Of a DNA stretch of 64,000 bases, positions 17,607 to 39,099 are shown one piece after another. Every line of letters begins with the position of its first letter. The stretch's first letter is position 1. The DNA lies in sequence record MZ501067; one strand, given 5' to 3'. Made by a program: the position numbers and the translations under genes. Under the pieces are notes generated by a model, which searched no databases, was not told where the DNA came from, and was given only the letters and a program-made list of their open reading frames with translations. This DNA is from Escherichia phage FriedrichZschokke.

Positions 17607-17660
17607 GTTCTTCTCACTTGGTTAATGATTTATACTCCGAGCCATCCTTGGCTTTAAATT

Positions 17661-18689
17661 TTACTTAATTAACTGTAAAGCCTGTTCTAAACGATCAAGA
17701 CGATTAACAGATTCTTCCCAAATCCTTTTAGCCTGCTCATATTCTTTCTGCGCTTTATTAGAAATTTCTAGAACTTCTTTATAAGCTTTTTCTAATGCAA
17801 TAACTTCTGGACGAATTTCTACCGGTTCAGGTGAATCATCAAGATTATTCATTAGTTCCTCAAGGGTAGTTTCTTCTTTAGGAGTATTCACAATTTCCTC
17901 ACATTTTTGTTGATAAATTTCTTTATCAGTAGGTGAATAAGCACATTTCACTTCACGAAGACTAATTACAATTTTATATCCTTCCCATCCGCATATATTC
18001 TTAAAAGGATATGTATGAATATTTTCTACCGTTTCCATACAAAGTAATGCAGTCTCTAACTGACGAGTTATAGTGCTAGCAATTGAGAAAAATTTATTAA
18101 TATTCTTTTGGTTAGCGTTTGGTGTAAAAAATCCATAATTCACAAAAATAGCTACTTTATTTTCATCAAGATCATATTCTTTTACGATAATCATATCAGA
18201 AGCCAAAGGATGAATTTGACGATAATCGCCATAACATAATTTAGAAGCTGATTTTAGAATTTGTCCTTTGAAAAGTCTGAAATTACTAATCCAACGGCGA
18301 GTAAAAATATTCTCAGGGTCTTCTTTATTAAGATGATAAGAATTAACATCACCGAACCAATTATATCCTACTACATCTTTGGTTCGTTTAATTTCTTTCC
18401 CAAAATTACCAAGAATATCCCGATTAACCAAATATGAAAGAAGACGAGACTCTTTAAAGGTTTTCTTGATAACATCTTTATCTACACGGCTAGAAATTTT
18501 ACGAATTTCATGAATAAATTTAGCAGAAGAAACAATACTTGCATCAACACTATTGAGCCACTGATTGATAATAGAAAGAACGCTATTTTGACCAAACATC
18601 GGTATAGCTTTATCATCAATAACTCTATTGAATGATTTAATATATTCGTTGCGAGTCATATTAATCTCCTCAGTAGAAAGTAAGAACAT
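17661..18689 (-). CDS. Hypothetical protein with C-terminal coiled coil (family member 2)
   Basis: 342 aa ORF. Confidence 0.6.
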   Translation of the reverse strand: MFLLSTEEINMTRNEYIKSFNRVIDDKAIPMFGQNSVLSIINQWLNSVDASIVSSAKFIHEIRKISSRVDKDVIKKTFKESRLLSYLVNRDILGNFGKEIKRTKDVVGYNWFGDVNSYHLNKEDPENIFTRRWISNFRLFKGQILKSASKLCYGDYRQIHPLASDMIIVKEYDLDENKVAIFVNYGFFTPNANQKNINKFFSIASTITRQLETALLCMETVENIHTYPFKNICGWEGYKIVISLREVKCAYSPTDKEIYQQKCEEIVNTPKEETTLEELMNNLDDSPEPVEIRPEVIALEKAYKEVLEISNKAQKEYEQAKRIWEESVNRLDRLEQALQLIK

Positions 18690-18716
18690 TATACCACATC
18701 CTTGTGGCGAAGTAAA
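18688..18716 (-). promoter_or_regulatory. T4-type early promoter with a hairpin in the spacer
   Basis: Minus strand TTTACT-N17-TATAAT; spacer contains CCACAAGGATGTGG. Confidence 0.45.
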
Positions 18717-19736
18717 CTAGTTTAGTGCATTTAGTGCGTTGTTCAATTTAGAACGTTGCTTCGTGAGATTTTTTACTTTTTCTTGAGCTTTTTCTAGCAT
18801 CTTTTCAGCTTCTAACGCTTCATTAGTTGCTTTAACGAGTTCATCATCTACTGCCTTGATAGACTTCTCAATCGCATCCGCGTGCCATTTTTCAACAGGT
18901 TTAAGACTAGGATTTTCAACAGGAAGAAAATTCACTTTATTAAATTTCCATGCATCTTTATTACCTGAACTATACATCCAAAATTTAGGATCGTTTGATG
19001 AGCAATTAGATAAATTTAAGTTATCTTGTACTTCCTGCTTTTTCTCTTGCGTGACTTCGTCTTTTCTCAAAAAATCATATTTAAATGAAACGATCATATC
19101 AAGTTCATATGTTGTTGTATGTTCCCAATTTCGCTCAAAACGAGGTAAAATCTTAGATTGAACAGCAGCAACAACATCCATATACTTAAATGCTTCTGTC
19201 AGCTGTGATTTAAGACATTCACAAATTGAACGAGAATTTTTAGTATTAGGTTTAAAGCTAATTCGTGCAGTTCTATTATTTTCTTTAGATGGTCTTACTT
19301 CCATTTGAAGAGTATAACCATCAAATTTCAGATTCTTTAAGTTAATATCAGAGCCTTTTAATCGACTAGCAGTAGACAAAATTTGCTTTAATTGTTTACG
19401 AAATAGAGCAATAAATCTCCATTCAATACGATAATGATTTGGATTAAAAAATCCTGTTGATAAATCAACCTTACTCTGACCAACGCCTTGAACAAATAGA
19501 GGATTTTTATAATCAATAGTTTTACAGAAATCGGTGAGCTGCTCACGAGCAGTCATTTGTGTAATATATCCCGCTTTACTAAAATGACGTAACCATTCAC
19601 TGCTATTCATATACTTAAAGTGAATGGAACTATTAACTCTATCAGGGTCTAAATTATTTTGGTACAAAAATGTCATAACATTACGGGTATAGCTGGCATT
19701 ACGAACCATATCTTCAATTTGAGAACGAGTTTTCAT
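18717..19736 (-). CDS. Hypothetical protein with C-terminal coiled coil (family member 3)
   Basis: 339 aa ORF. Confidence 0.6.
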   Translation of the reverse strand: MKTRSQIEDMVRNASYTRNVMTFLYQNNLDPDRVNSSIHFKYMNSSEWLRHFSKAGYITQMTAREQLTDFCKTIDYKNPLFVQGVGQSKVDLSTGFFNPNHYRIEWRFIALFRKQLKQILSTASRLKGSDINLKNLKFDGYTLQMEVRPSKENNRTARISFKPNTKNSRSICECLKSQLTEAFKYMDVVAAVQSKILPRFERNWEHTTTYELDMIVSFKYDFLRKDEVTQEKKQEVQDNLNLSNCSSNDPKFWMYSSGNKDAWKFNKVNFLPVENPSLKPVEKWHADAIEKSIKAVDDELVKATNEALEAEKMLEKAQEKVKNLTKQRSKLNNALNALN

Positions 19737-19744
19737 AGTGTTCC

Positions 19745-20653
19745 TTAAGATTTAAGTAAATCAACAATTTTAATTAATTTTTCACGCTCAGATTTAGCTT
19801 TACTACTCAATCCAGATAGTCTGAAAATTTCATCGTCATACTGTTGAATAGAAATATTCAGCTCTTCAATTTGCTTATTAAAATAATCAATTTGCTCAGA
19901 ATGTTTTTCATTACTGCGAACTGGTACAGGTTTTGTAGGCAATTTAGTTAAACTGGATTCATCCGGGCGATAAATTAAAATACAACTTGAACCAATCGGG
20001 CATTTAGCACCAGACACATATTCTAATGTTCCGGCTTCTTTTAAAACTTCAAAAGCTAAACAGAGATGATGCCCCATATTAACATAATCTGTAGAGCGAG
20101 CTCTGACGTAATAATCATCGCCGCGAATACTAAATTTAAAGCATTTAAGGTCTTCTGTATTATTGGTCTTAAAAATCATTTGTTTATCTAGACCTTTAGC
20201 TAATCGAGCGCCTAATGCTAATAATCGTCGTTGATTTTCCCACAAATCTGCGATCATTTGGTCAAATGATAATTTCGGCATTAGTCGACCGTAAAGATCA
20301 TAGCCTTTATTATAATTGCGAAGAATTTCACTCGCGTTAATACGAGACAATGCTCCAATTTTATTAAGGGCTTTCATGATGCGATTAGATAAACCCATTC
20401 CAGACCCGTTTGTTCGTTGTAAATGTTTATCTAATCCAAACCCAATATCAACTTTAAATTTATCTAAAATTTCAGCATGAACATCTCTGTCAATAACATT
20501 CAAATCCAAAGTTGGGTTAAATCTATGAAAAAATTTATCTGGCTCTCCACGACGAAGTACAGTCCATTCATTCAATTTTTTATTAACTAAAGATTTAATT
20601 ACTGCATTGACATTATTAATTACTACTGACATATTTTCCTCACTCAATTTCAA
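19745..20653 (-). CDS. Hypothetical protein with C-terminal coiled coil (family member 4)
   Basis: 302 aa ORF. Confidence 0.6.
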   Translation of the reverse strand: MKLSEENMSVVINNVNAVIKSLVNKKLNEWTVLRRGEPDKFFHRFNPTLDLNVIDRDVHAEILDKFKVDIGFGLDKHLQRTNGSGMGLSNRIMKALNKIGALSRINASEILRNYNKGYDLYGRLMPKLSFDQMIADLWENQRRLLALGARLAKGLDKQMIFKTNNTEDLKCFKFSIRGDDYYVRARSTDYVNMGHHLCLAFEVLKEAGTLEYVSGAKCPIGSSCILIYRPDESSLTKLPTKPVPVRSNEKHSEQIDYFNKQIEELNISIQQYDDEIFRLSGLSSKAKSEREKLIKIVDLLKS

Positions 20654-21047
20654 TTTTACTAAATACGCAGAATATGATGGAAAAGACTATATAAGCACCG
20701 CATACAGATTGAACTAATACCATTCCAAAGAACCAAACAATATTATCAAACAATGTCTGTTTTACGTCGAAAGGACGTAAACTTACAGTAATATTATCGC
20801 CTTTTTCTATTGATGAATACATCTCTGGGGAAATATATTCACTAAATCTATAACCGTCTTTGAGTTCATATACGGCAATAAACGATAAACTAGACCCCTT
20901 TCCTTGAGTTCCTGTAAAGGTATTAACCACAGTAACATCATAATCTTTATAATGCATATAATCATTAATTGCGTAATAACCATATGCAATTGCTATACAT
21001 AAACAACATATCAATAAATTCAATCTTTTAATTATCAACTGTTTCAT
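20640..21047 (-). CDS. Membrane protein (N- and C-terminal transmembrane helices)
   Basis: 135 aa ORF with two hydrophobic segments. Confidence 0.55.
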   Translation of the reverse strand: MKQLIIKRLNLLICCLCIAIAYGYYAINDYMHYKDYDVTVVNTFTGTQGKGSSLSFIAVYELKDGYRFSEYISPEMYSSIEKGDNITVSLRPFDVKQTLFDNIVWFFGMVLVQSVCGAYIVFSIIFCVFSKIEIE

Positions 21048-21076
21048 AATAATCTCAATTAAAAGGGCTTAGAACC

Positions 21077-21101
21077 ATTATACCATCCTTGGTATAAAGC
21101 G
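21077..21101 (-). promoter_or_regulatory. Candidate middle promoter (MotA-box-like GCTTTA, 12-nt spacer, -10 TATAAT) with a spacer hairpin
   Basis: Minus strand CGCTTTA-TACCAAGGATGG-TATAAT. Confidence 0.35.
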
Positions 21102-21102
21102 G

Positions 21103-21630
21103 TTATGCGAGTACCGTCTTTAACCGTTCTTCAAACTTCCGAAGAGTATTTTGGCGTTCAGCTCTTTGCTTTTTGTAAGTTTCAATACGCTCTGAAATGA
21201 GAGTGTATCGTTCATTTACTGATTCTTTCATAAAATCAGGAATTTCACGAGAAGCTTTAATCTCGTCAAATTTATCAATAACAGCTTGCTCTTCAGCAAT
21301 TAAGTTATCATACATCAAAATATCTTTCTTGATGAACTCAATATCTTCTTGAGTTACACGAGATAACTTAGATGCTTTATCCTTTTTGTACTGTTCATTA
21401 GTATCACGAGACCAGTGTAATGTACGATTTTTATTCGTATTCTTATAAATTTCTACAATACCAATCTCATCAATAATAACGATCCAATTCCAACGGGATT
21501 TGTAAATTTGTCCTCCATCAACTGTGATTTCACCTCCGATTGAGATGTCATTAAAGAACTTGCTTTGTGCTTCAGATTTAAATTTACCATCGTTGTAATT
21601 TACCAAGTTGAAAATATCTTTAGCGTTCAT
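21103..21630 (-). CDS. Hypothetical protein
   Basis: 175 aa ORF. Confidence 0.55.
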   Translation of the reverse strand: MNAKDIFNLVNYNDGKFKSEAQSKFFNDISIGGEITVDGGQIYKSRWNWIVIIDEIGIVEIYKNTNKNRTLHWSRDTNEQYKKDKASKLSRVTQEDIEFIKKDILMYDNLIAEEQAVIDKFDEIKASREIPDFMKESVNERYTLISERIETYKKQRAERQNTLRKFEERLKTVLA

Positions 21631-21657
21631 TTTCTGTTCCTCCGTAGTTGATAGTTG

Positions 21658-21688
21658 TATAGTACCACAGAGGAACAGTCTTGTAAAC
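21658..21688 (-). promoter_or_regulatory. T4-type early promoter
   Basis: Minus strand GTTTACA-N17-TACTATA upstream of ORF 21103..21630. Confidence 0.45.
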
Positions 21689-21690
21689 CA

Positions 21691-22005
21691 CTAAAAGAAG
21701 CTTCTTTCACAATTTTTTCCACTGAACCACGCGCTCACTGCTTTCTTAGTCTCAGGAGCAGTGTTATCCATAAACCATTCAAAGGCAGCCTTTTTATGAT
21801 TCTGGAGGGCTTCTCGGGCTTTAATCTGCTCACGGTCTATTAACACTAACATGTGAGCCTTTCTTGTCACCAAGGGCTTCTTATGATTCTTGGAGTATTC
21901 CCAGTCATTTGTCCAACGCATTGTCGTTGCGAACTGATGAACCGCGTCTTTAATTTTAGTTTCGTAAATTTCACGAGCCTTTGAGTATAACATCACTACC
22001 TCCAT
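21691..22005 (-). CDS. Hypothetical protein
   Basis: 104 aa ORF. Confidence 0.5.
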   Translation of the reverse strand: MEVVMLYSKAREIYETKIKDAVHQFATTMRWTNDWEYSKNHKKPLVTRKAHMLVLIDREQIKAREALQNHKKAAFEWFMDNTAPETKKAVSAWFSGKNCERSFF

Positions 22006-22094
22006 TTACCAGTTTAATTCTAATCATCTTTTTGATGGCAGTCCATATAATCTATTTCTGAACTGCCTTTTTGTCATAGAAGTCCTCTTATGAA

Positions 22095-23063
22095 TTATTT
22101 CAGAAGAGTAACCTCAGCAATTTCTTCCCAACCGTTTTTGTCGGTCATAATAAAGTCAGCAAGATAAAGAGCAGTACGCAGTGAAACATTACGTAAACGG
22201 TTAACATTGACTTTCATCCATGATAATGCTTTATAAGTTTCTTCATCAGAAAGACCGCGTTTTTGCATCATGTCAGTTGAAAGAATAACATCTTCAACCC
22301 TGACCATAATTTCTTCATTAGTGTGAACACCCAAATCCAAATAAACTGAGCGGGACACTAATGCTTGTAAATGTGGAGCAAGTTTAGTACCACGGTCTAA
22401 TTCGCGGTCAATGTCAACGTTTGTGATAAAAACAATCGTTCCTTTAAATTCAAACTCACGCTCAATGCCTTTTTCTTCTAAGTAAGAAGATGCGGTGCTC
22501 CAGCAGACTTTACGGGTCTCTCCAGTGTCCAGAGCGGCTTTTAGAAGATTAAGAATGTCCATATCAGAGAAAACATCCACATCATCAATCAAAAGGACAT
22601 AATTCTCTTCACGATTATTCCAAAGCTGTTCATAAAGACCGATACCAGAGATTTTACCATTAATGCTTTTATATTCAATGTATCCAATATCATTTGCTTT
22701 ATTTAAAGCTTTATCTAAAGAATACGTTTTACCAATACCCGCCGCACCAGAGATAATTAATGAACGAATGTTTCCGTTAATAATACCATTCGTCATCATT
22801 CCCATAACATTAAATCTTTTATTAATGCGGGTTTTCATGTCTTCATACGATTCTTTAACTTCTTCAACTTTTACACCATCATATGAAATGTCTGATTTGT
22901 AAACCCAAACACCGCGACGCTTACCGTCAATTTCAACAAAAACTTTACCATCTCCTTGTGCATCTACCGGAGCATTATCTGGGAACCATTCGCCTAAGAG
23001 CTCAAAAGTTCCAGAGATTTCTTTACCGAAGTAGATACCCTTATTGATAGTTACAGTTTTCAT
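22095..23063 (-). CDS. P-loop ATPase of unknown function (nrdC.10 position)
   Basis: 322 aa ORF with Walker A GAAGIGKTYS and Walker B-like LLIDDVD. Confidence 0.65.
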   Translation of the reverse strand: MKTVTINKGIYFGKEISGTFELLGEWFPDNAPVDAQGDGKVFVEIDGKRRGVWVYKSDISYDGVKVEEVKESYEDMKTRINKRFNVMGMMTNGIINGNIRSLIISGAAGIGKTYSLDKALNKANDIGYIEYKSINGKISGIGLYEQLWNNREENYVLLIDDVDVFSDMDILNLLKAALDTGETRKVCWSTASSYLEEKGIEREFEFKGTIVFITNVDIDRELDRGTKLAPHLQALVSRSVYLDLGVHTNEEIMVRVEDVILSTDMMQKRGLSDEETYKALSWMKVNVNRLRNVSLRTALYLADFIMTDKNGWEEIAEVTLLK

Positions 23064-23120
23064 TTTATTCTCCTTTGATTTGATAGGACTACTATAACAT
23101 AGTCCTATCAGTTTGTATAC

Positions 23121-23321
23121 TTATTTTGACATTTCTTCGATGTCACGACGATACCCGTCACGAACTTCACGAAGAGCTTCAAGGCCACACATAGGCTCGA
23201 TACCAGTAATGTGAACTTGATTAATCTGATACTCTACATCTTCTAACTGAGCGAAAACATAACGACGTTCAGCTGCACACCCAGATTTAGCTTTACCGAA
23301 ACGTTTATTCAAAGTAGTCAT
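23121..23321 (-). CDS. Hypothetical protein
   Basis: 66 aa ORF downstream of an early promoter. Confidence 0.45.
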   Translation of the reverse strand: MTTLNKRFGKAKSGCAAERRYVFAQLEDVEYQINQVHITGIEPMCGLEALREVRDGYRRDIEEMSK

Positions 23322-23358
23322 TTTGTATCTCCAATTTACTCATTTGTTTTGATAGTTG

Positions 23359-23389
23359 TATAGTACCATAAAGCTTTATGCTTGTAAAC
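23359..23389 (-). promoter_or_regulatory. T4-type early promoter with a palindromic spacer
   Basis: Minus strand GTTTACA-N17-TACTATA; spacer contains the perfect palindrome CATAAAGCTTTATG. Confidence 0.45.
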
Positions 23390-23410
23390 AGTTTTGTGAA
23401 AAATTTTTGA

Positions 23411-23438
23411 AATAAAAAAGGGAGCCCGAAGGCTCCCT
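23411..23438 (-). terminator. Rho-independent terminator with UUCG tetraloop
   Basis: GGGAGCC-CGAA-GGCTCCC followed on the minus strand by UUUUUU. Confidence 0.6.
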
Positions 23439-23439
23439 A

Positions 23440-24452
23440 TCATTTATAATAACTTCGGTGGTTTTCAAGATAGACCTTCTCAAGGAAGTCATCCCAGAAA
23501 CTCATGTCTACTGTTTTAGGCATACCGTTCTTAGAAGCTTCAGTAGATGCTGCTTCTACTTGATCGACCACATCTTCCAAAAACTCTTGAACTGTTTTAA
23601 ATGGATGTTTACCCAACTTCACGTCGAGAATAAATGGAGCATCTTGAAGTGGATAGACTAAGTCACCAGTTTTGTAAATTTCCAATAGTTGGAGTCCACC
23701 ACGACAAGCATGACTTAGTGCTTTCCAATCAATGCCTTCATTGGCTTCGGCCTTACGAGCACGTTCACCGTATTCAGCATCTAATTTGTTCAGTGACTGC
23801 TTAAGCTCAATAAGAGAAAGCGTTGTCTGATATTTACGACCCAACACAGTGTAGAACGTTTGTGGGCCTGTTTTCTCATGATTATGGAACACCCATTCAC
23901 AGAATTCGTTTTCTGGAAGACGATGCTTAATATCTTCAACTTTAGTACGACGCTGCTTAATGGAACCGTCTTCTTGGTAATCAACCATTGCTCAGGGATT
24001 TGATTAACTACTTTCAATACATCACGTAATGCAGCCAAACGAGAACCCTTGACGCCGTATTTAGAAGCTTGCTTGCGGACATATCCTAAATATGATTTCA
24101 TGTTAGTCGTATAAAAACGAGAACGGTTGTCTTGAATAAACTTCCACACATCAGGCAAATCGGATTTAACCACTAGTTCAGGTGGAGTGTGAAGCATATC
24201 CAACGCTACAGTTTCACCATCTGCTGCTAATTTAAAGAAATATTTAAGACTGTATAGTTCATGGTCAATATCATCTTTAGTGTTTTTAGATGATGTATTG
24301 TTAGTATTTTTACTCATATGCTCTTTAACATTTCCGATAAGAATATCACGAGCAGGAGGAACAAAGATTTCTTTAAAATCTACATCAGATTCTGGGGTAG
24401 AAGTTCCATAAAGATGACTACCAAAATAGCTTTTCATTACTGTTTTCATCAT
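23440..24452 (-). pseudogene. Pol-beta-superfamily nucleotidyltransferase-fold protein, apparently split by a -1 frameshift near 23986-23995 (~150 aa N-terminal part plus 182 aa C-terminal part)
   Basis: N-terminal G[S]x10DxD motif YFGSHLYGTSTPESDVDF; after residue ~155 the upstream frame becomes low-complexity while the overlapping frame (ORF 23440..23988) is protein-like; TGA in the downstream frame lies 6 nt before its ATG. Confidence 0.45.
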
Positions 24453-24910
24453 TCAGCCTTATATTCAATAACAGGACATACTTTAGCTTTACGAGCTTTT
24501 AAAAATTCAACGATAACCGATTTCTTGGGTTGAATAGGAGGTAAACCTTTATACGCCCTATCAATATTTTCTACGTGTAAAGCATAATCCTTTTTCCATT
24601 TATAATCTTTATATTTTTCACGCAAATGTGCAGGAATAACAAATGAACCGATAATAAGTAAAACAACCAAAAGCGCAAGTATAAATGCTGATGGAAGCAA
24701 AGTCCATAAACTACCAAAAATAATCCAACGTTGTAGGCTTTCTGCACAAATAATTGTTAGCCCTACGAGTATAGCACATCCAAAAATAGAAACGAAAAAT
24801 GTAGGAATGGCAATAGACCAAAAATATGCGCACAGTGTCTTAGGTCGTTGCCATTCATCGTTAAACAATTTGAATAATTTATAGTGCCAAGAGTTTTCAT
24901 TAATAATCAT
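24449..24910 (-). CDS. Membrane protein (multiple transmembrane helices)
   Basis: 153 aa ORF with hydrophobic segments. Confidence 0.5.
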   Translation of the reverse strand: MIINENSWHYKLFKLFNDEWQRPKTLCAYFWSIAIPTFFVSIFGCAILVGLTIICAESLQRWIIFGSLWTLLPSAFILALLVVLLIIGSFVIPAHLREKYKDYKWKKDYALHVENIDRAYKGLPPIQPKKSVIVEFLKARKAKVCPVIEYKAE

Positions 24911-24912
24911 AA

Positions 24913-25434
24913 TTATTCTTTCATTGAAGGCGTAACGGTTGTTAAATACTTAATCATAGCTTCAGCTTCTGATTTTGATAGTGAAATTTCTTCACCGTTT
25001 TGGCGAATAGAAACAAAATCTGGATGACGATCACCACCAGCTTTTAAAACACACATATAAGTATCAGCTTCGCCTTCAATATTTGAAATGATTGAAGCAG
25101 TTCCACATGAATGAGGTTTTTGATAAATCAATACAGCTTTTCTTCCACCATTTGACTGTTCATAGGCTTTTAATACATCAAGCAAATCAGTTCTTTTATC
25201 AATAGCTAAGATGTTATTTTCATCTTCAATATTAAATCCTTCGGATACTTCATAAAGAGTTACCCATAAATCACCGATGTCAATAACAGCATTTACTTTT
25301 CCACGGCTTTCAAGAGTATGACAAATTTTCTTGATTTCGTCATAACTCATTTTAATAATATCATCTCCTTGACTAAGGAAGATGTCATTTTTAAATTCAA
25401 CACGAATTAAACCGCTTCCACTTGAAATAAACAT
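24913..25434 (-). CDS. Hypothetical protein, tandem paralog A
   Basis: 173 aa ORF; C-terminus and GFNIE motif resemble the adjacent ORF. Confidence 0.5.
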   Translation of the reverse strand: MFISSGSGLIRVEFKNDIFLSQGDDIIKMSYDEIKKICHTLESRGKVNAVIDIGDLWVTLYEVSEGFNIEDENNILAIDKRTDLLDVLKAYEQSNGGRKAVLIYQKPHSCGTASIISNIEGEADTYMCVLKAGGDRHPDFVSIRQNGEEISLSKSEAEAMIKYLTTVTPSMKE

Positions 25435-25440
25435 ATTTCC

Positions 25441-26254: not shown

Positions 26255-26429
26255 TTAAAGTTTCAATATAAGAATCAAGATTTACTTTAGCTTCTTCCAT
26301 AAGAGTTTTGTATTTAATCTTGTTAGCATGTCCGGAGAAAGCTGATTCATCAATAACTGTTGATGTATGAACAGCTCTACTATACGTCTCAATTAATTCT
26401 CTTAATTTAAAAGCCTGCTCACTTGTCAT
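26244..26429 (-). CDS. Hypothetical protein
   Basis: 61 aa ORF. Confidence 0.4.
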   Translation of the reverse strand: MTSEQAFKLRELIETYSRAVHTSTVIDESAFSGHANKIKYKTLMEEAKVNLDSYIETLIGE

Positions 26430-26951: not shown

Positions 26952-26953
26952 AA

Positions 26954-27372: not shown

Positions 27373-27403
27373 TATAGTACCACAACTCAAACGGAAAGTA
27401 AAC
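27373..27403 (-). promoter_or_regulatory. T4-type early promoter
   Basis: Minus strand GTTTACT-N17-TACTATA. Confidence 0.45.
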
Positions 27404-27410: not shown

Positions 27411-27436
27411 ATGAAAAAAGTCTCCCGAAGGAGACT
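27411..27436 (-). terminator. Rho-independent terminator with UUCG tetraloop
   Basis: AGTCTCC-CGAA-GGAGACT followed on the minus strand by UUUUU. Confidence 0.55.
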
Positions 27437-31070: not shown

Positions 31071-31077
31071 GCTTACC

Positions 31078-31539
31078 TCATTGAGTTTTAATTACTGCTT
31101 TAGAAGCCTTTCCTGGTAAACGACGACTGTTGATAATTGCCATCCTGCATTGAAGTGACGGGTCTTTGAACTTCTCATTAGGCTTACAAACCGTAAATCC
31201 AAGCCAAAGATTTCCATCTGTGATTTCTAAACGTCCAGGACGATATTCAACCCCATCAATAAAATCCTCGTCAATGTCAGGACGCGGAGGCATACTCAGG
31301 AATTCATTAACTTCTAAAACATGGTCTTTTATTTTATGGAATAATTCAAAAACATATGTCTCATCAATCTCCCGTTGAATTGCACGATCAAGAAGATGTT
31401 GAGAATATTTTAGATGAAACGATGAGACTCCTGCTGCTTTTGATGCCTCACGAATCTCATTGTTAATTTGACGAAACTCCGACTCAAAGTGACGACGAAG
31501 CTTATTTCGACGGATAAAAACTTCTGTATTGATAGTCAT
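31078..31539 (-). CDS. regB: Site-specific endoribonuclease RegB
   Basis: 153 aa ORF MTINTEVFIRRNKLRRHFESEF... at the T4 regB position and of the same length. Confidence 0.8.
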   Translation of the reverse strand: MTINTEVFIRRNKLRRHFESEFRQINNEIREASKAAGVSSFHLKYSQHLLDRAIQREIDETYVFELFHKIKDHVLEVNEFLSMPPRPDIDEDFIDGVEYRPGRLEITDGNLWLGFTVCKPNEKFKDPSLQCRMAIINSRRLPGKASKAVIKTQ

Positions 31540-31566
31540 GTTGTTCTCCTCTTAACTGATAGAAAA

Positions 31567-31595
31567 ATTATACCACAGTCAAGAGGAAAAGTAAA
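31567..31595 (-). promoter_or_regulatory. T4-type early promoter upstream of regB
   Basis: Minus strand TTTACT-N17-TATAAT. Confidence 0.5.
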
Positions 31596-31598
31596 CAG

Positions 31599-31877
31599 TT
31601 ATTCTTTAAATCTAATCAATTTATTCATAGACTTTGAAACTTCTGCACGAACCTCATGTAAGTTTTTAAGCTGTTCAAGACGCTGCTCATAGTAAGCAAT
31701 TTCATCTTCTTCGAGACAGTCCTGTGAATCTTCTTTAAGATAGCGTGCATAGTCCTGGAAAGCTTTACGGACTACTTCCTGGAAGTCATCAAGACTTTGA
31801 ATTTTCTTAGGAGCGGCAGATACACGACGAGGGGCAGTATAATACTCATAACCAAACCCTGCACTTAATTGAGCCAT
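31599..31877 (-). CDS. Hypothetical protein (T4 vs.3 position)
   Basis: ORF 31599..31919 trimmed to the internal ATG ([13 protein letters not shown]). Confidence 0.4.
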
Positions 31878-32143
31878 TAGTATTTTTCCTCTGGTTGGAA
31901 CACAGCACGGCAAGCCCACATACTTGCTTCTTTGAGTTTCGTTTTAGCAATAGTTAACTGATCGAGGCTTTCGGCGTAATTCTTCGCGAGTTCATCATCT
32001 TCACAGCTATCAAATGCTTCCCAGAATTCATCGTATAAAGCGTCAAAGATAAGTCCTAAACGAACTTCAGCGTCTTTGATAGCATTCACTTTACCGATTT
32101 TCTCTTCAGTATGCGGCTTATAACCTTTAATGTCTTCAATCAT
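31877..32143 (-). CDS. Small helical protein at the T4 vs.4 position (possible Acb2-type anti-CBASS sponge, by synteny only)
   Basis: ORF 31877..32179 trimmed to the internal ATG ([15 protein letters not shown]); position between regB and the GrcA-like gene. Confidence 0.3.
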
Positions 32144-32357
32144 ATTTGACTTCCTCACCAGTACATAAATCGTATTCAACTAAACGAATAGGTTCATGAA
32201 TGCCATATCCCTGAACAGAAATTTCTGTAGTAGGATAAATTCCATCAATATCACCCATATTCCACGCTTCGTTAAATTGCTGTTCGCCTGAATTACTAAA
32301 CCACTCGGCGAAAGCATTTAGCACATCTTTAGAACCTTCAATAATTATCTTTGCCAT
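32136..32357 (-). CDS. Hypothetical protein
   Basis: 73 aa ORF. Confidence 0.45.
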   Translation of the reverse strand: MAKIIIEGSKDVLNAFAEWFSNSGEQQFNEAWNMGDIDGIYPTTEISVQGYGIHEPIRLVEYDLCTGEEVKYD

Positions 32358-32719
32358 TATAAGCTCTCAGTAAAGGTACGAGCAATAACGTCGCGCTGCT
32401 GTTCCGGAGTCAGAGAGTTAAAGCGAACTGCATAACCGGATACACGGATGGTCAGCTGCGGATATTTTTCCGGATGCTTAACTGCATCTTCCAGAGTTTC
32501 ACGACGCAGAACGTTAACGTTCAGGTGTTGACCACCTTCAATTTTAACTGTAGGCTGTGGCTCAATTTCAATTTCACGAGCATGCAAACCGTAGAAAATT
32601 TCTGGGTCTACAAAAGAGTCCTCTTTAAAGGTTTTAGAGACAATAATTCGTGCTTGAATACCATCTTCAAAATAAATAGTACCTTTATGTGTGCCTTCAA
32701 GAATTTGATATGCTTTCAT
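32357..32719 (-). CDS. Autonomous glycyl-radical cofactor (GrcA/YfiD-like)
   Basis: 120 aa ORF whose C-terminal ~60 aa ([59 protein letters not shown]) carry the RVSGY glycyl radical motif. Confidence 0.85.
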
Positions 32720-32726
32720 ATAAACC

Positions 32727-33053
32727 TCAATTAGAAAATAAATTTATCCAAGATTGTTCTTTAATTAAAAATGGCTCAGAATCATATGCCATTAAACTTT
32801 GGGTGATTAGTCCTTTAAAAGGTCCATCAATAAATTCCATGGTAAAATATGGAATTTTATTCATTAACTGTGCGTTAGGAGCAGTGCACAAAACTCTGCA
32901 TCCTTTGAATACACCTTTTTGTAATTTGTATTGCTTGGGATAAAATTCGCTTAAAATGTTGTTATTTGCCAAAATTTCAAAATGATTTACCAATTTATTT
33001 TTAATAGTTTTTGGCGAAAAATAGAGATATTCGAAAAGCTGTGTGTCTGTCAT
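32727..33053 (-). CDS. Hypothetical protein
   Basis: ORF 32727..33107 trimmed to ATG at 33053 (MTDTQLFEY), overlapping the upstream stop in TAATG. Confidence 0.45.
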
Positions 33054-33649
33054 TATTGCATTCCGATTACGAAAAACTGTGGACGAGTAATACCACCAAT
33101 GCAACATTTACTATTACAGCAGTAGTGTACAGTGTCAATATGGACGCTATAAATCTTATCCATATCAGGAGATTTGACAGGCTCATCAATTATATACAAA
33201 ATTCGCGAAAGCGATAAACCTCTGAACTTGCTTCCTTTATTACCAATAAAACTGCGTACAGAATCAGTAAATAAACGAAAACGTATATCATCATTAGAAT
33301 AACGCGAAAATTCCTTTTTAATGTTATTTGCAGAAATTTTAGCGTAAGCTGAAGTATTAGAAAGAACAATAACTGTTCCGCCATCATACAGCCAATTAGC
33401 AGCAAAGTTAGTCACAGCAATTGATTTACCAGATTGACGTCCACCATCTATACGAAGTGTGCAGTACTGCTTAAGTAATTCTTCAAATGGCGGGATATAT
33501 TCGTTTTTACAAATTTCTTCTACTCTAGCATCAGAATGGTGTGTAAAAGCATTCATCAGGGATAGATACGGGCCAGTTAAAAATGTTCTCATATTTTCTC
33601 TCTTAATTTTTGGGCCATTCCATGGCACATGAGTTGTCCATTCCTGCAT
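33053..33649 (-). CDS. Small P-loop NTPase-like protein
   Basis: Walker A-like GGRQSGKS and Walker B-like LYIIDEP; start uncertain. Confidence 0.45.
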   Translation of the reverse strand: MQEWTTHVPWNGPKIKRENMRTFLTGPYLSLMNAFTHHSDARVEEICKNEYIPPFEELLKQYCTLRIDGGRQSGKSIAVTNFAANWLYDGGTVIVLSNTSAYAKISANNIKKEFSRYSNDDIRFRLFTDSVRSFIGNKGSKFRGLSLSRILYIIDEPVKSPDMDKIYSVHIDTVHYCCNSKCCIGGITRPQFFVIGMQ

Positions 33650-33727
33650 TACCCATTACCGCGCTTTGGCTCGACCTTATCACAGGTTGACGGGAATACC
33701 TCAAATGAGGTCCAGGCTGTTCCCATA

Positions 33728-34201
33728 TTATTTGAACGATTTAACGTACTGAATAGAACCTTTACTATTTACAAAGGCAATTTTACCATTTTTACTATAC
33801 ATGGTAGCAGTACGTTGATAACCATAAGTTTGTTTACCAGATTGATAACCAACTAATGCGAAATTATCTTCGCCCATTTTATTCTGTTTAGCGCGAATGC
33901 GTTCATGACCATGTGCCATAAGAACCTTAGCATCACCGGTTGCAATGGATCGACGAGTTTTTTCATCTTCAACTGTATTAACAAAGTCGTCAAATGAATC
34001 AAATTTAGCATGAGATTTATTATACAGTTTTCCATCTACTGCATAATTATATCCCTGTACATCCATCTCAACTTCTGTACCATCATCCAATACAGCAGTG
34101 ATTTTTTGACCTTTTTTAAATTTCAAAAGATCAGTAAAAGATTCAGCAATAATTTGAGAATTAATAGCTGCTTCAGTGATAAATTCTTGATATGTTTTCA
34201 T
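33728..34201 (-). CDS. Capsid-targeted internal protein (IP-family), 157 aa
   Basis: N-terminal capsid targeting sequence MKTYQEFITE as in T4 internal proteins; body not recognised. Confidence 0.6.
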   Translation of the reverse strand: MKTYQEFITEAAINSQIIAESFTDLLKFKKGQKITAVLDDGTEVEMDVQGYNYAVDGKLYNKSHAKFDSFDDFVNTVEDEKTRRSIATGDAKVLMAHGHERIRAKQNKMGEDNFALVGYQSGKQTYGYQRTATMYSKNGKIAFVNSKGSIQYVKSFK

Positions 34202-34217
34202 ATGATTCCTTTAATTT

Positions 34218-34535
34218 TTATTCTTTAGGAAAATTTTTAGAATATGCGTCGTAAAGCTTATTTCCAATACGACGAAAAACTCTAGCTGCAAAACGATTTT
34301 CTGGGTTTTTAATCATAATTTGCATCATATAAGTACCCGCGTCTGAAAGAGCTTCTTCATAGTACCCGTTAATTTCTTTAAGAGTCCTACGTTTACCACC
34401 AGGACCATCAACAGTGATTTTCCATTTACCTGTAGAAGTGCGACTCGGCGGCTCAACTTGTTCAATCCAAATATAACCGCCTTCTACACGTTGTCCTGCA
34501 GCAGATTCTGCAATAAATTCTTGATATGTTTTCAT
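34218..34535 (-). CDS. Capsid-targeted internal protein (IP-family), 105 aa
   Basis: N-terminal MKTYQEFIAE capsid targeting sequence. Confidence 0.6.
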   Translation of the reverse strand: MKTYQEFIAESAAGQRVEGGYIWIEQVEPPSRTSTGKWKITVDGPGGKRRTLKEINGYYEEALSDAGTYMMQIMIKNPENRFAARVFRRIGNKLYDAYSKNFPKE

Positions 34536-34544
34536 ATGTTTCCT

Positions 34545-34961
34545 TTAAATGTAAATATTTTTACCGTAATACTTATACCAATGTGGTTTCATTAAAATTT
34601 TTTCATCAAGTCGTTGTTGACTCAATTTAATAGCTGATTTGCATGGATTATAATCATTTTTCCATTCTACTGGAATATCGCTGATGTCAGGAACTTCAGT
34701 ATCTTTTATACTGAACCCTCGTTTTAAGCATTCCGTTATAATGTCTAATTGACGCTTTCGCAAAAATTCTAACTTATCGTAAAAGAAAGTAACATGACCA
34801 GAACCTAAAATAAATTTAGAAGATATTTTAAAATCTTTAACGCGCTTACCGTTTGCCACATGCTTACGAACTATACCAAAAACACGCGGCAATTCACGGT
34901 ATTCTGCGATTAAATGTTGATCAGCAAGTTCAGATACTAAAGTCAAATTAATACGAGTCAT
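34545..34961 (-). CDS. denV: Endonuclease V (pyrimidine dimer DNA glycosylase) DenV
   Basis: 138 aa [31 protein letters not shown]... matches T4 DenV, with divergence in the C-terminal half. Confidence 0.9.
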
Positions 34962-34985
34962 TTTATCCCTCCAAGTAACTGTGAA

Positions 34986-35014
34986 TATACTATCACAATT
35001 CTAGGAGAAAGTAA
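34986..35014 (-). promoter_or_regulatory. T4-type early promoter upstream of denV
   Basis: Minus strand TTTACT-N17-TAGTAT. Confidence 0.4.
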
Positions 35015-35020
35015 ACAACT

Positions 35021-35989
<969 letters not shown>

Positions 35990-36008
<19 letters not shown>

Positions 36009-36478
36009 TCAGTGATAAAGTTATTTAAATTTTGAGTATATTTCTTTTCATCAAAAATCCTTTGTTGTCTGCGTAGCCGCCATGGCATTTCAATGAACGT
36101 GTACCATATCCCAGATAATATTGCTGCTGTAAAAATATTAACAAGTATGGTTAAAAGAATCCAATCTCCTATTCTGTCCATTGGATTTTTTATAAAAAAG
36201 TAAAATACGAATGATGTCACAGGAAAACTAATAATGTACCACAGAATCATAATTTTATCTGTGAACCAATCAGCATTTGTTAACTTAGCACGACCATTAT
36301 GAATACACACGAATTTATCATCTGTTATAATAGATGGCTTAGCTGCTTGATATCCCATTCTAAACTCCCTAATCAACAAATTTTTCATATCTTCGGAACA
36401 ACCATTCCAGTCAACTCTATTAACTGAAATGCCATCATCCCCATCATCTAAATCATACCAGCGAGTTTTTAAAATCAT
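35990..36478 (-). CDS. Membrane protein (e.2-type); C-terminal FITECRKLK
   Basis: 162 aa ORF with transmembrane segments. Confidence 0.5.
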
Positions 36479-36849
36479 TTAATTTTCCTACAATCATTCA
36501 CGAATTCTTTCATTGATTCATTTTCAATATAAGACATGTAGTTATTATATTCTTTTAATTGTATTTTGTAATCCTTTTTTCTTTGCCAATTTATTTTAAA
36601 ATTATCATAATGAAAATATAAAATGATACTAAAGAATGAAAATAATGAAATTGCTATAGTATAATGAAGTTCACTCCAAACTTCTATTATATCTACTATA
36701 CCGCTGACGTTACTGCGGATGTTTAAAATAATACAGTCAATCATTAATCCAATAAGACTACCAGCAAGAGCTGCAGCCAACGCCACAGCAAAAATTAAAA
36801 ATGACTCAGAAAAAGAATATTTGACTTTATTTAGTTTTGGCTTTTGCAT
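36475..36849 (-). CDS. Membrane protein; C-terminal FVNDCRKIK
   Basis: 124 aa ORF with transmembrane segments. Confidence 0.5.
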   Translation of the reverse strand: MQKPKLNKVKYSFSESFLIFAVALAAALAGSLIGLMIDCIILNIRSNVSGIVDIIEVWSELHYTIAISLFSFFSIILYFHYDNFKINWQRKKDYKIQLKEYNNYMSYIENESMKEFVNDCRKIK

Positions 36850-37223
36850 CGTGATTCCTTAACAAATTTCATAATTTCATTAAATTCATACATATTTAGT
36901 TTAAGCTGGTGTTCCTTTTTAATCTTTTTACACTGAGCTTTCCATTCACGTACACGTTTACGATAATGCCTTCCTTGATACCAATATCCTACCCAATTTA
37001 CAGGTACCAATAAAAATGGAACTACTAATGGAAGAATTAATACTAACAAAAATATTACGCCAGATTTAATATCAGTCATAAAGTCTATAACCATTCCAAC
37101 AATCAATAGAATTACAAATGATATAGCTGTCACAGGACCTATTAATACATCAGTAGGAATTAGCTGACGTTTTAGTTCATACTTCACAGGTTCACTTGGA
37201 AGGTATAGTGATGGCTTTGACAT
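36831..37223 (-). CDS. Membrane protein; C-terminal FVKESRCKSQN
   Basis: ORF 36831..37244 trimmed to ATG (MSKPSLYLP), which has an AAGGAA Shine-Dalgarno. Confidence 0.5.
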   Translation of the reverse strand: MSKPSLYLPSEPVKYELKRQLIPTDVLIGPVTAISFVILLIVGMVIDFMTDIKSGVIFLLVLILPLVVPFLLVPVNWVGYWYQGRHYRKRVREWKAQCKKIKKEHQLKLNMYEFNEIMKFVKESRCKSQN

Positions 37224-37797
37224 ATTCTCTACATTCCTTAACAAATTTTTCTAATAATAAATCGCTTTCAAAATTAGGATTTTCTACGAATTTATCAAAA
37301 AGATCATCAACAATAGTTAAGATATTCTTTTTACTAAGAATACGTTTATTTTCATGCTTTGTTTCAGAATCAACTATAAGAGTAAAGAAATATTTCTTGC
37401 CCTGAAATTTTACAGTAGTATCAATATAGAATAAATTTGACTTTTGTAAATTACGTTTAAACCATGCATCACTTAAACTATAAACACCAAGATAATCATA
37501 ATCGTCGTTTAAATAACATACTGTCCATTCAGGAGAAATGAAATCAGTAAATTCAACATCAAAATCACATGTTAATGAATGAATTGATTCAATACTGTTA
37601 ATAAGTATTCCAGGACGTATTAAAGACTTTTTACCTTTATAAAATCCAGAAAGACTTTCATCAGTTTCATATGAAGAACCCCAATAATAATTACGTCCTT
37701 CTGCCATACGTTTAAGAGCATTTAATAATTGGTCTGGAACATCAACCTGTCTTTGGAACTCTTCAAACATTGAATTGAAATCACTTTGCATTTTCAT
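37192..37797 (-). CDS. Hypothetical protein; C-terminal FVKECREYV
   Basis: 201 aa ORF. Confidence 0.5.
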   Translation of the reverse strand: MKMQSDFNSMFEEFQRQVDVPDQLLNALKRMAEGRNYYWGSSYETDESLSGFYKGKKSLIRPGILINSIESIHSLTCDFDVEFTDFISPEWTVCYLNDDYDYLGVYSLSDAWFKRNLQKSNLFYIDTTVKFQGKKYFFTLIVDSETKHENKRILSKKNILTIVDDLFDKFVENPNFESDLLLEKFVKECREYVKAITIPSK

Positions 37798-37817
37798 TCC
37801 TACTTACTCCAAGTAAT

Positions 37818-37833
37818 AGGGGCCGAAGCCCCT
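37818..37833 (-). other. Intercistronic UUCG-tetraloop hairpin
   Basis: AGGGGC-CGAA-GCCCCT inverted repeat. Confidence 0.5.
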
Positions 37834-37838
37834 TATCA

Positions 37839-38432
37839 TTATTTCAGAGAATTAATGTATTCCTGAACATCGGCAGAGGTAGTTTCAACCCCAGAAATAT
37901 TGCCATTAAAGGTTTCAACTCGAGCAAGAGTATCTTCAATATCAACCTTAGTCAGTGCTGCAATTTCAACTACATCATCAGCAGTACTAATTCCAAGGGC
38001 ATTTGCTGCACGAGTTTCACGGATATATTCCAATTTAACTGCAAGTTCTTGGCGAGCATCATCCAATTCAACTACTTTCTTGGCGATTTCAATTCGCATT
38101 TCAGCATAACCATCAGCTTTAGTAGTCAACTGTTCAGCTGTTCGACGATATAGCAAGCCGAGTTTAGCATGCATTGTTACATCTTGACCTTCAGAAAGAA
38201 GCTTGCGAATTTCACGCTCTTTTGATTCGGCCTGTCGATTCTTTTCGACAATAAGTTCACGAATACGTTTTTCTTCATTAATAGATTTAACAGAAGCAGT
38301 TTTTAGATCTTTAATCTTATCAAGTAGTTTTGCTGCCGCAGCAGTATACTGTTCTTCAACAGATAGATTTTTAGCCATAGCAGAACCAAGTTTAGTGCGA
38401 ATAAACTCAACAATTTTCTTCAGTGTGTTCAT
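37839..38432 (-). CDS. Alpha-helical coiled-coil protein (loosely PspA-like)
   Basis: 197 aa ORF rich in E/K/R/A heptad-like repeats. Confidence 0.5.
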
Positions 38433-38489
38433 AGTATTTCCTTAGGTTGGTATAATTAGATAATATCACGTTTCTAATAGATTGTAAAC

Positions 38490-38825
38490 TTATTCTTCGT
38501 CTAGCTCGTCGATAAAGGCGTCGATGGCCTCGACAACGGCATCATTGATAGCCAATAAAATAAAATCATCGTCAGTACCTTTAGAAGATTTTAAAGCATT
38601 GATATATGCTTGGTTGGCGAGTTCCCAAGCCTTTTTAAAATAAGGAGCTTCATCATCGGGGCCAACGAAACGTACGCCTTCAAAGATACGGTTAGCATAA
38701 TCCAATACCCAATGTACAGGTATGTTTTGAGAACGTTCGTTAAACTCTTTAAATTCCTTAGATTCAAAAAGCTCTTCAGGATAATCATTTCTATTACAAA
38801 AAGCTTTACTAAAGTTACGTTTCAT
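38490..38825 (-). CDS. Hypothetical acidic protein
   Basis: 111 aa ORF downstream of an early promoter. Confidence 0.5.
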   Translation of the reverse strand: MKRNFSKAFCNRNDYPEELFESKEFKEFNERSQNIPVHWVLDYANRIFEGVRFVGPDDEAPYFKKAWELANQAYINALKSSKGTDDDFILLAINDAVVEAIDAFIDELDEE

Positions 38826-38850
38826 AATGTTTTCCTTGTGATGATAAGTC

Positions 38851-38880
38851 TATAGTAACGCCTTCATACTTAGATGTAAA
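38851..38880 (-). promoter_or_regulatory. T4-type early promoter
   Basis: Minus strand TTTACA-N17-TACTATA. Confidence 0.45.
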
Positions 38881-39040
38881 CTATTTCAACATCGCCTTTT
38901 GCTGTTTTATAACCTTCAGCCCAAGATACAACCGAGTTTTTATCTGAAGATTCAAATTCTGGCATTGGGCTTTCGCCAATGTTCACGCAGTATGTTTCTT
39001 CATTTTCGTCGAACCAAATAATTAAAGTAGTCATTTATTT
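38876..39040 (-). CDS. Small hypothetical protein, 54 aa (below the ORF-track cut-off)
   Basis: Manual translation MTTLIIWFDENEETYCVNIGESPMPEFESSDK...; GGAG Shine-Dalgarno upstream. Confidence 0.4.
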
Positions 39041-39070
39041 CTCCGTTTCTGTATTTGTTTTGATAAGTCT

Positions 39071-39099
39071 ATAATAACACCATCCTTGGTGTTTGTACA
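39071..39099 (-). promoter_or_regulatory. Early-type promoter with a spacer hairpin
   Basis: Minus strand TGTACA-N17-TATTAT; spacer ACACCAAGGATGGTGT forms a 6-bp stem with a 4-nt loop. Confidence 0.35.

Follow-up and report, generated by a model that had tools for sequence, protein, structure and literature searches.

A strand-specific hairpin family in promoter spacers of T-even phages with a loop that matches the CsrA consensus

The DNA considered here is a stretch of 64,000 nucleotides of Escherichia phage FriedrichZschokke (record MZ501067), hereafter the window, and the elements in question are short inverted repeats embedded in promoters of its minus-strand genes. Four of the five repeats listed in the initial annotation are members of one family of short hairpins, confined to a lineage of T-even phages (Tequatrovirus, Mosigvirus and Dhakavirus). 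As that annotation had proposed, the unit of promoter plus stem-loop agrees with the published concept of the early promoter with stem-loop (PeSL), and the module is in this respect of a known kind. What is newly seen, judged from sequence, is a defined, conserved and strand-specific hairpin class with a loop equal to the binding site of the host regulator CsrA. The most informative feature of the modules, which the initial annotation had missed, is this identity of loop and closing pair, C-ANGGAN-G, with the CsrA binding consensus. We tentatively read the modules as PeSL-type units whose stem-loop is a protein-binding RNA hairpin, possibly one for host CsrA.

A hairpin family with an invariant loop

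Megablast identifies the window as Tequatrovirus, with 98% identity to phages R5505 and FriedrichMiescher. In T4 terms it extends from about gene 45 to the neck genes, the window position being approximately the T4 coordinate minus 32,250, and nearly all genes from nrdC.3 to e.8, the span of the sites studied, lie on the minus strand. Divergent genera were compared through the GenBank phage records of Mosigvirus Shf125875 (128 kb) and Dhakavirus IME341 (123 kb), and further lineages were sampled with 50 kb of RB49 and 48 kb of Klebsiella phage JD18. Scans of IMG/VR and of a metagenome collection yielded five to seven loci each, in which the hairpins were identical with few exceptions. Since no genus shows internal variation of the hairpins, close relatives are uninformative on covariation.

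The family core consists of a variable stem of 4-8 bp, a C, the loop A-N-G-G-A-N (at times one base longer), a G and the other arm of the stem. All four window sites (Table 1) read C(AAGGAU)G. In members from the three genera, A1, G3, G4 and A5 of the loop are the same throughout, as is the C:G closing pair; position N2 is taken by A or U, and N6 by U, C or A. Six members carry the loop AUGGAU, and upstream of T4 rnlA a 7-nt loop, AUGGAGU, is found. T4 members outside the syntenic positions lie upstream of rIIA.1, ndd.6 and rnlA, the first of these being a near-identical copy of the hairpin B module. Mosigvirus members are located upstream of motB, motB.1, alt.3, alc, rnlA and nrdB, and those of Dhakavirus upstream of imm, a cd.3-like open reading frame (ORF) and others. 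Three of the repeats lie exactly where the initial annotation had placed them, at 17640-17653, 21080-21095 and 39077-39092; the second AGGA repeat is likewise present, one base away from its annotated position.

Table 1. Hairpins, promoters and associated features of the window (positions count from its first letter)
Feature	Position	Strand	Sequence or arrangement	Covariance-model score (bits)
Hairpin A (site 1)	17640-17653	minus	AGCCA-AGGA-TGGCT = AGCC(AAGGAU)GGCU	23.3
Site 2 promoter with hairpin B	18688-18717	minus	GTTTAC-N18-TATAAT, strict early motif	23.9
Hairpin B	18694-18707	minus	CCACA-AGGA-TGTGG, in spacer of site 2 promoter	
Site 3, middle promoter PnrdC.7 with hairpin C	21077-21100	minus	GCTTTA-N12-TATAAT	26.9
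Hairpin C	21078-21097	minus	TTATACCA-AGGA-TGGTATAA	
Site 4 promoter with hairpin D	39071-39100	minus	GTGTAC-N18-TATTAT, one mismatch to early consensus	25.0
Hairpin D	39076-39093	minus	AACACCA-AGGA-TGGTGTT, in site 4 spacer	
54-amino-acid ORF, RB69ORF145c homologue	38870-39034	minus	forms a cassette with module D	
Palindrome promoter	23360-23389	minus	strict early motif; spacer palindrome CATAAAGCTTTATG at 23369-23382	
UUCG terminator hairpin	23419-23438	minus	AGGGAGCC-UUCG-GGCUCCCU plus U tract; just upstream of the promoter at 23389	
Second UUCG terminator hairpin	27419-27436	minus	just upstream of the early promoter at 27374-27403	

The family is strand-specific. Members were counted on the sense strand of the early genes and on the antisense strand, with Markov shuffles as the null for each strand. 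T4 holds seven on the sense strand, one of which looks like a chance match in a coding region, and none on the antisense strand, against a null of 0.70. The corresponding sense and antisense counts are ten and one for Mosigvirus (null 0.45), seven and one for Dhakavirus (null 0.85), and four and none for the window (null 0.5). Counted as sequence, CAAGGATG alone is mildly over-represented (5 against 1.64 expected). The motif CAAGGA[TC]G occurs 12 times in the whole T4 genome; the four copies in promoters are flanked by 3-6 further stem pairs, the other eight by 0-1. A census of perfect tetraloop hairpins with stems of at least 5 bp on the early-sense strand of T4, Mosigvirus and Dhakavirus is led by C(UUCG)G with 45, followed by A(AGGA)U with 12 and the next class with 7. 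The window alone gives seven C(UUCG)G, four A(AGGA)U and three of the next class.

A covariance model was built from 16 distinct members. These include the window versions of all four sites, which consequently match partly by construction, at 23.3-26.9 bits across the 64 kb. The informative part of the scan is the gap of about 10 bits to the next match, which scores 13.6 bits (E = 1.3). In an Rfam scan the gathering threshold was reached by tRNAs alone, and no match was found at the hairpin sites up to E = 10; a literature search for the hairpin sequence itself returned nothing relevant.

Comparison of syntenic sites offers a greater level of detail about the stems. Upstream of nrdC.3 the stem is AGCC/GGCT in T4-like phages, CAACC/GGTTG in Mosigvirus and CATCC/GGATG in Dhakavirus. 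After nrdC.8, at the position of site 3, both T4-like phages and Dhakavirus have TTATACC/GGTATAA, and Mosigvirus has ACCC/GGGT, the complete hairpin there being ACCC(AAGGAC)GGGT. Upstream of rnlA, CCAC/GTGG of T4-like phages corresponds to TACCAC/GTGGTA of Mosigvirus, and no hairpin was found at this position in Dhakavirus. The check across T4-like genomes that the initial annotation had called for thus reveals compensatory stem differences at syntenic Mosigvirus and Dhakavirus sites.

Over the 16 distinct members, 86.5% of stem cells are paired, versus 56% in shuffled and at most 51% in slid alignments, with four of the stem pairs having belonged to the rule by which members were selected. 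A sixth stem pair, outside this rule, is paired in 13 of the 16. The independent evidence for pairing is therefore provided by the synteny-defined comparisons, the sixth pair and the enrichment tests. All four window hairpins are present in both the minimum-energy and the centroid folds of their 111-nt contexts, with stem energies of -4.9 to -8.9 kcal/mol and z from -1.3 to -2.3. Because the stems at syntenic positions change in a compensatory manner, the enrichment is strand-specific and the loop is invariant, the hairpin itself is very probably under selection, in line with what the initial annotation had concluded from the window alone.

Promoter spacers and read-through transcripts

The recurrent minus-strand promoter motif claimed in the initial annotation is well borne out: GTTTACW-N17-TAYWAT has 13 exact matches in the window, all on the minus strand, against 0.05 expected. 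It corresponds to TTTACW-N17-TAYWAT, the PeSL consensus given for PST/T4 in the text of Comeau 2014 (PMC4122927). The TGG described as usual directly before the -10 box is found in 7 of the 13 matches. The same architecture had been ascribed to all repeat sites, as early promoters, and this proved too broad. The motif is exact at site 2 and at the palindrome promoter, deviates by one mismatch at site 4, is replaced by a MotA-type arrangement at site 3, which is the mapped T4 middle promoter PnrdC.7, and is matched weakly at site 1, where TTTAAA-N18-TATAAA is all that can be recognized (-35-like TTTAAA; weak -10-like TATAAA at 17629-17634). Hairpins are not a general property of these promoters. 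Most early promoters are without one, and a spacer hairpin of at least 5 bp occurs in 3 of about 20 credible early promoters of the window. Among T4 early promoters such hairpins number 8 against 2.5 expected (P = 0.0015), an excess carried by duplicated modules and by the AGGA family.

Within the family, 21 of 23 members fill the promoter spacer, with a -35 box (GTTTAC, a near match, or one of the MotA type) directly 5' and the -10 box at or within the 3' arm. The upstream stop codon precedes the start of the hairpin by 4-9 nt, and the hairpin GGA lies 39-52 nt before the next start codon. Hairpin A begins 7 nt past the nrdC.4 stop codon, upstream of nrdC.3. At site 2 the G of GTTTAC is overlapped by the stop codon TAG of nrdC.5, with nrdC.4 downstream (ATG at 18659), and site 4 is placed between the e.8 stop codon and the 54-amino-acid ORF. 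Module D also occurs in Mosigvirus, upstream of the RB69ORF145c-like gene and of alc.

The distance from AAGGA to the -10 box varies between 3 and 10 nt, indicating that the loop does not represent a fixed polymerase contact. The hairpin accompanies early -35 boxes, MotA-type boxes, or no promoter at all. One Dhakavirus member, ACCAC(AUGGAU)GUGGU, has no -10 box and runs straight into AGGAGG-N5-AUG. The nrdA-nrdB spacer of Mosigvirus and Dhakavirus has its TATAAT upstream of the hairpin, so that a local transcript would start inside the 5' arm. The hairpin is kept at site 1, where the promoter looks decayed, and upstream of rnlA it is kept although the promoter has a MotA-like box in T4 and a GTTTAC box in Mosigvirus.

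The position of the hairpin relative to transcription can be read most directly at site 3. T4 PnrdC.7 is an experimentally identified MotA-dependent middle promoter with a start mapped to 53325 (T4 middle-promoter table, Hinton 2010, PMC2988021). This start lies exactly 7 nt after the homologous TATAAT, and hairpin C therefore occupies about -28 to -9. In the window, hairpin C overlaps both the MotA-box-like GCTTTA at 21095-21100 and the TATAAT at 21077-21082, with a predicted start near 21070. The comparison of start sites used the T4 middle-promoter table only, in which early-promoter starts are not covered, and the T4 GenBank records carry no annotated promoter features. At PnrdC.7 the hairpin is located upstream of the start of its own promoter, and the remaining hairpins presumably occupy the same place.

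An intact hairpin upstream of the local start would be absent from the local transcript and carried only by read-through RNA. Read-through across the hairpins is suggested by the absence of strong sense-strand terminators upstream of them, together with the known polycistronic nature of early and middle transcription in T4. We consider it rather likely that the hairpin acts as RNA, on read-through transcripts.

Side by side with hairpin B, the 5' untranslated region of nrdC.4 (18645-18690) shows a further structure. In the 111-nt fold its Shine-Dalgarno (SD) sequence GAGGAG is paired with an upstream UUCUUAC. This second small hairpin lies downstream of the -10 box and could affect nrdC.4 translation from both types of transcript.

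The CsrA-like loop and competing explanations

The consensus obtained for CsrA by SELEX is RUACARGGAUGU, with ACA and GGA fully conserved; CsrA sites hold the GGA in a hexaloop on short stems, with AC paired to GU (PMC7652899, PMC6849547). CsrB repeats read CAGGA(U/A/C)G in hairpin loops, and the homologous RsmE contacts A and GGA of an ANGGAN hexaloop in which the N positions vary, the optimal high-affinity site being (A/U)CANGGANG(U/A) (PMC7652899, PMC6849547). The phage core C-A-N-G-G-A-N-G, presented in a hexaloop, is identical to the core of (A/U)CANGGANG(U/A), variable positions included. Hairpin B contains ACAAGGAUGU, which matches 10 of 10 positions of the SELEX consensus core. The likeness to known CsrA hairpins (CsrB/CsrC repeats, the glgC leader, SELEX ligands) hence extends over the loop GGA, the ANGGAN hexaloop, the C:G closure and the same pattern of conserved and variable positions. 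Unlike those hairpins, the ones described here are phage-encoded, sit in promoter spacers and would be carried on read-through RNA only, and the likeness is known from sequence.

The phage-derived covariance model shows a preference for CsrB hairpins: when it was run on 7.5 kb of E. coli sequence, for a total of 15 kb searched, 6 of the 17 weak matches fell on the sense strand of the 369-nt csrB (1657-2025 of the sequence used). CsrB loops are one base shorter (AGGAN) than the phage hexaloops. The 5-bp stem ACACC/GGUGU of module D (AACACC-AAGGAU-GGUGUU) recurs in the E. coli CsrB hairpin ACACC-AGGAU-GGUGU, with the loop shortened by this one base, and CsrB also contains the 8-mer CAAGGAUG. For the stem shared by CsrB and module D, convergence and host origin are both possible.

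Host CsrA is in our opinion the best candidate ligand, a prediction that we put forward with reservation. CsrA bound at the hairpin would mark the read-through copies of the downstream cistron. A single CsrA dimer can bridge two sites 10-63 nt apart (PMC7652899, PMC6849547), and most members, those of sites 2 and 4 included, have a second GGA within this range, overlapping the SD sequence 29-42 nt downstream. A dimer bound at the hairpin might thus bridge to the GGA-containing SD and, most simply, repress the downstream cistron on read-through RNA, as in glgC. Alternatively, binding could alter the decay or stability of the read-through RNA, or the hairpins might collectively titrate CsrA. Transcripts from the local promoter would escape CsrA in either case. 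A broader and more doubtful proposal is that T-even phages hide high-affinity CsrA hairpins in promoter spacers, where only read-through copies become marked, and in this way couple their early and middle programme to the host Csr system. Such coupling might operate through translational discrimination between transcript isoforms, through CsrA titration, or through both. Two circumstantial reports can be cited, one of an unusual stability of CsrB in T4-infected cells, the other of a broad fitness advantage that csrA knock-down gives when phages are present, an effect its authors regard as probably pleiotropic.

Several observations weigh against assigning the hairpins to CsrA or to the RNA level. 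No family member was found on either strand of the 50 kb of RB49 and the 48 kb of JD18, phages whose hosts also have CsrA. ANGGAN hexaloops with any closing pair show no general excess over both strands of T4 (6 against 6.4 expected), and the definition of the motif by C:G closure, sense strand and a loop of 6-7 nt was sharpened after the data had been seen. Members are partly paralogous or orthologous by descent, so that their counts are not independent. The restriction of N2 to A or U goes beyond what CsrA demands. Window sites 1 and 3, two of the four, are without GGA in the SD sequence, and SD sequences of the GGA/GGAG type are common in T4, which makes the dual-site geometry weak evidence. 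In the literature we found no paper that links CsrA to T4 mRNAs. The orthologous alc promoters carry a hairpin in one of three genera, so it must be dispensable for those promoters. The exact seat of 21 of the 23 members in the promoter spacer is not obviously required by a function purely at the RNA level. This association is better explained by an element acting in DNA and constitutes the weakest point of our reading; the compactness of the intergenic regions answers it only in part.

The first alternative is a plain PeSL stem-loop with no specific ligand, which would attenuate or terminate upstream transcription, or form a barrier to exonucleases at the 3' end once the upstream cistron has been processed. 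[quoted passage not shown] As a barrier the hairpin could cooperate with the AU-rich -10 box directly 3' of it, which might serve as an RNase E-type site. Against such a role stand the weak stems and the missing U tract: a terminator scan of the sense strand did not pick up the four hairpins, which do not look like intrinsic terminators. Moreover, the phage possesses strong UUCG terminators elsewhere (7 in the window, 45 across the three genomes), and attenuation leaves the invariant A-GGA and C:G closure on freely varying stems unexplained. We regard this alternative as unlikely.

The second alternative, an element of the promoter DNA, is in our view quite improbable even though it accounts best for the location. 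The repeat would tune the binding of RNA polymerase, or would serve as a site for a DNA-binding factor or as a small cruciform that modulates firing. The exact filling of the spacer, the fixed orientation relative to the promoter and the reuse of TGn/-10 bases by the 3' arm all agree with it, and T4 early promoters are known from the literature to hold consensus information beyond the canonical elements. Of the five lineages sampled, only the three T-even genera contain the family, and motA and asiA are annotated in T4, Mosigvirus and Dhakavirus, the three whose records were examined for them. On the other hand, the conserved AAGGA shifts by several nucleotides relative to the -10 box, the hairpin is found beside -35 boxes or MotA boxes and also where there is no promoter, and orthologous promoters work without it. 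A protein that binds the duplex would be expected to conserve the sequence of the arms rather than their complementarity. Stems of 4-8 bp are, in addition, too short for cruciform extrusion.

Ribosome- or nuclease-directed roles are very improbable. The loop could mimic an SD sequence or provide a ribosome standby site, AAGGA being complementary to the 3' end of 16S rRNA. The six AUGGAU loops, however, pair poorly with the anti-SD sequence, and N6 of the hexaloop is never G, so that no AAGGAG arises; the exception is the 7-nt AUGGAGU upstream of T4 rnlA. The loop could likewise be a target of the RegB endoribonuclease, which according to the literature cuts GGAG/U in intergenic regions of early genes. 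Yet the RegB consensus calls for an unpaired, A-rich stretch 3' of GGAG, and structure is reported to protect from cleavage, whereas here the 3' side is a stem, and loops with GGAC or GGAA do not fit GGAG/U. The hairpin loops (GGAU/GGAC with a paired 3' side) therefore lack the features of RegB cleavage sites, and a partial fit is seen only beside hairpin A. Directly 3' of this hairpin GGAG (17635-17638) is followed by UAUAA(A/U), an arrangement kept in the three genera (Mosigvirus at about 3010 and Dhakavirus at about 18025 of the sequences used). Its sequence GGAGUAUAAAU agrees in part with the strong RegB consensus GGAGRAYARAA, and a RegB cut at this position could leave an upstream RNA that ends in the hairpin.

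The remaining alternative is also very improbable. Here the hairpin would be a signal for recombination, or would be carried along neutrally as promoter modules are duplicated, and would matter only as structure in single-stranded DNA or as homology for the shuffling of modules. Near-identical modules do occur at unlinked loci (T4 copies at 2.4 and 50.9 kb; in Mosigvirus four copies of module A type, three with identical stems and one variant, and two of module D), and a crossover in an RB49 PeSL was mapped to the loop (Arbiol 2010, PMC2839356, text). Promoter families without a hairpin have nevertheless been duplicated likewise, and compensatory changes with an invariant loop over at least 12 different stems need selection on both the fold and the loop sequence. 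No rival accounts at once for the invariance of the A-GGA loop, the C:G closure, the freedom of the stems and the variable distance to the -10 box.

Modules, mosaic genes and neighbouring repeats

The modules resemble published PeSLs in the position of the stem-loop, their recurrence and their flanking of indels, and at site 2 also in an exact TTTACW-N17-TAYWAT promoter. They lie in hyperplastic regions next to ORFs that differ between close relatives, with the stem-loop in or beside the promoter and an intergenic region that ends in an SD sequence and a start codon. As stated in the text of Arbiol 2010 (PMC2839356), a stem-loop that lies between the -35 box and the -10 box is one of five PeSL subclasses, and in RB49/phi1 stem-loops are most often found there or over the -10 box. 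PeSLs of PST/T4 have been described as well, some of them, near 43-51 kb of PST, degraded but with the stem-loop intact (Comeau 2014, PMC4122927, text); these may include the sites studied here. The differences are also clear. The stem-loops presented in these two texts function as terminators; those of RB49/phi1 are G/C-rich (Gn-loop-Cn), and those of PST/T4 are placed immediately upstream of the promoter. In contrast, the present hairpins are weak, have no U tract, carry an invariant ANGGAN loop closed by C:G, and occur also in a mapped middle promoter and without a promoter. The text of both papers, figures aside, does not mention the loop family or a CsrA-like consensus.

The T4 early promoter, recognized by sigma-70 through UP, -35, TGn and -10 elements (PMC2988021), has a consensus that fits sites 2 and 4 and the palindrome promoter. 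A spacer hairpin is part of neither the early nor the middle promoter definition (Hinton 2010, PMC2988021). With the C(UUCG)G terminators the family shares a recurrent, strand-specific and intergenic occurrence, an invariant loop, C:G closure and variable stems. Those terminators, however, have long G/C-rich stems and U tracts and stand upstream of promoters, whereas the AGGA class is short, weak and located inside the spacer.

Promoter stem-loop modules of T4-type phages have so far been treated as promoter-terminator cassettes and as recombination sites. If the hairpins are of CsrA type, the classic early and middle programme of T4 would be linked to a major post-transcriptional regulator of the host, and there would be a reason for different treatment of nrdC.3, nrdC.4, nrdC.7, rIIA.1, ndd.6, rnlA and others on read-through and local transcripts. 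Overlapping signals would then be packed into intergenic regions of about 55 nt, with an RNA signal encoded in promoter sequence that the promoter itself does not transcribe. Should CsrA fail to bind, there still remains a conserved, strand-specific hairpin class, second in frequency to UUCG hairpins in these genomes, with another ligand.

The initial annotation had further suggested that the modules flank variable ORFs and promote their shuffling. The modules do recur at several loci and bound indels; for a role in recombination as such, the evidence is comparative circumstance. Module D and the 54-amino-acid ORF are inserted between e.8 and e.7 relative to T4, with both junctions inside promoter modules, and together resemble the Mosigvirus ORF145c locus. 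This cassette, absent from T4, was found in 263 phage records, and its right junction often differs there. Modules B and A enclose the nrdC.4 gene, which Mosigvirus lacks; in that genus nrdC.3 and nrdC.5 are preceded by identical A modules. The protein of nrdC.3 (16677-17606) is about 60% identical to that of T4, in surroundings (nrdC.4, the intergenic module and nrdC.2) of 95-100% identity at the DNA level, which makes nrdC.3 a sharp allelic mosaic within one gene. A sharp recombination boundary at hairpin A was considered and rejected: identity to T4 decays 60-100 nt downstream, inside nrdC.3. The boundary of this mosaic, not being at the hairpin, also speaks against a recombination signal.

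The fifth repeat of the initial annotation, the palindrome CATAAAGCTTTATG, could not be upheld as a related hairpin. As RNA it reaches -2.8 kcal/mol (z = 0.03), it is without the AGGA loop, and it is lost at the syntenic Mosigvirus promoter. The 30-nt promoter that holds it, GTTTACAAGCATAAAGCTTTATGGTACTAT, is identical at the unlinked T4 loci 55384 and 146875, upstream of nrdC.10 and frd.3. Other promoters without a hairpin are near-identical to one another, such as the AAGACTGTTC... family at T4 27080, 53943 and 166807. Whole promoters thus seem to behave as dispersed repeats.

Promoters with room upstream carry strong UUCG terminators, for example the two listed in Table 1; the first of these and the promoter downstream of it form the PeSL arrangement as drawn for PST/T4. 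The idea that spacer hairpins substitute for terminators where an upstream stop codon leaves no room was discarded, as most stop-abutting promoters are without a spacer hairpin.

A second, different kind of promoter-embedded repeat, unlisted in the initial annotation, is present upstream of nrdC.11. It is a 12-bp inverted repeat, GATAGGACTA...TAGTCCTATC, at 23080-23111 (minus strand), which spans a TATAGT -10 box; the 5' arm belongs to the promoter spacer, the 3' arm to the initially transcribed region. In Mosigvirus, the promoter that follows denB has a comparable repeat, TAGGACTA-TGATA-TAGTCCTA. At the early promoter upstream of e.8 (39410-39439; T4 70684) the spacer contains CATCC(C/T)TG; the T4 version, exactly the CAAGGATG core in reverse complement, forms no hairpin and probably arose by chance. 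Eleven tRNA genes, one of them barely above threshold, were detected at 39921-40939 on the minus strand; the T4 record annotates eight, which indicates that the tRNA cluster is larger than that of T4.

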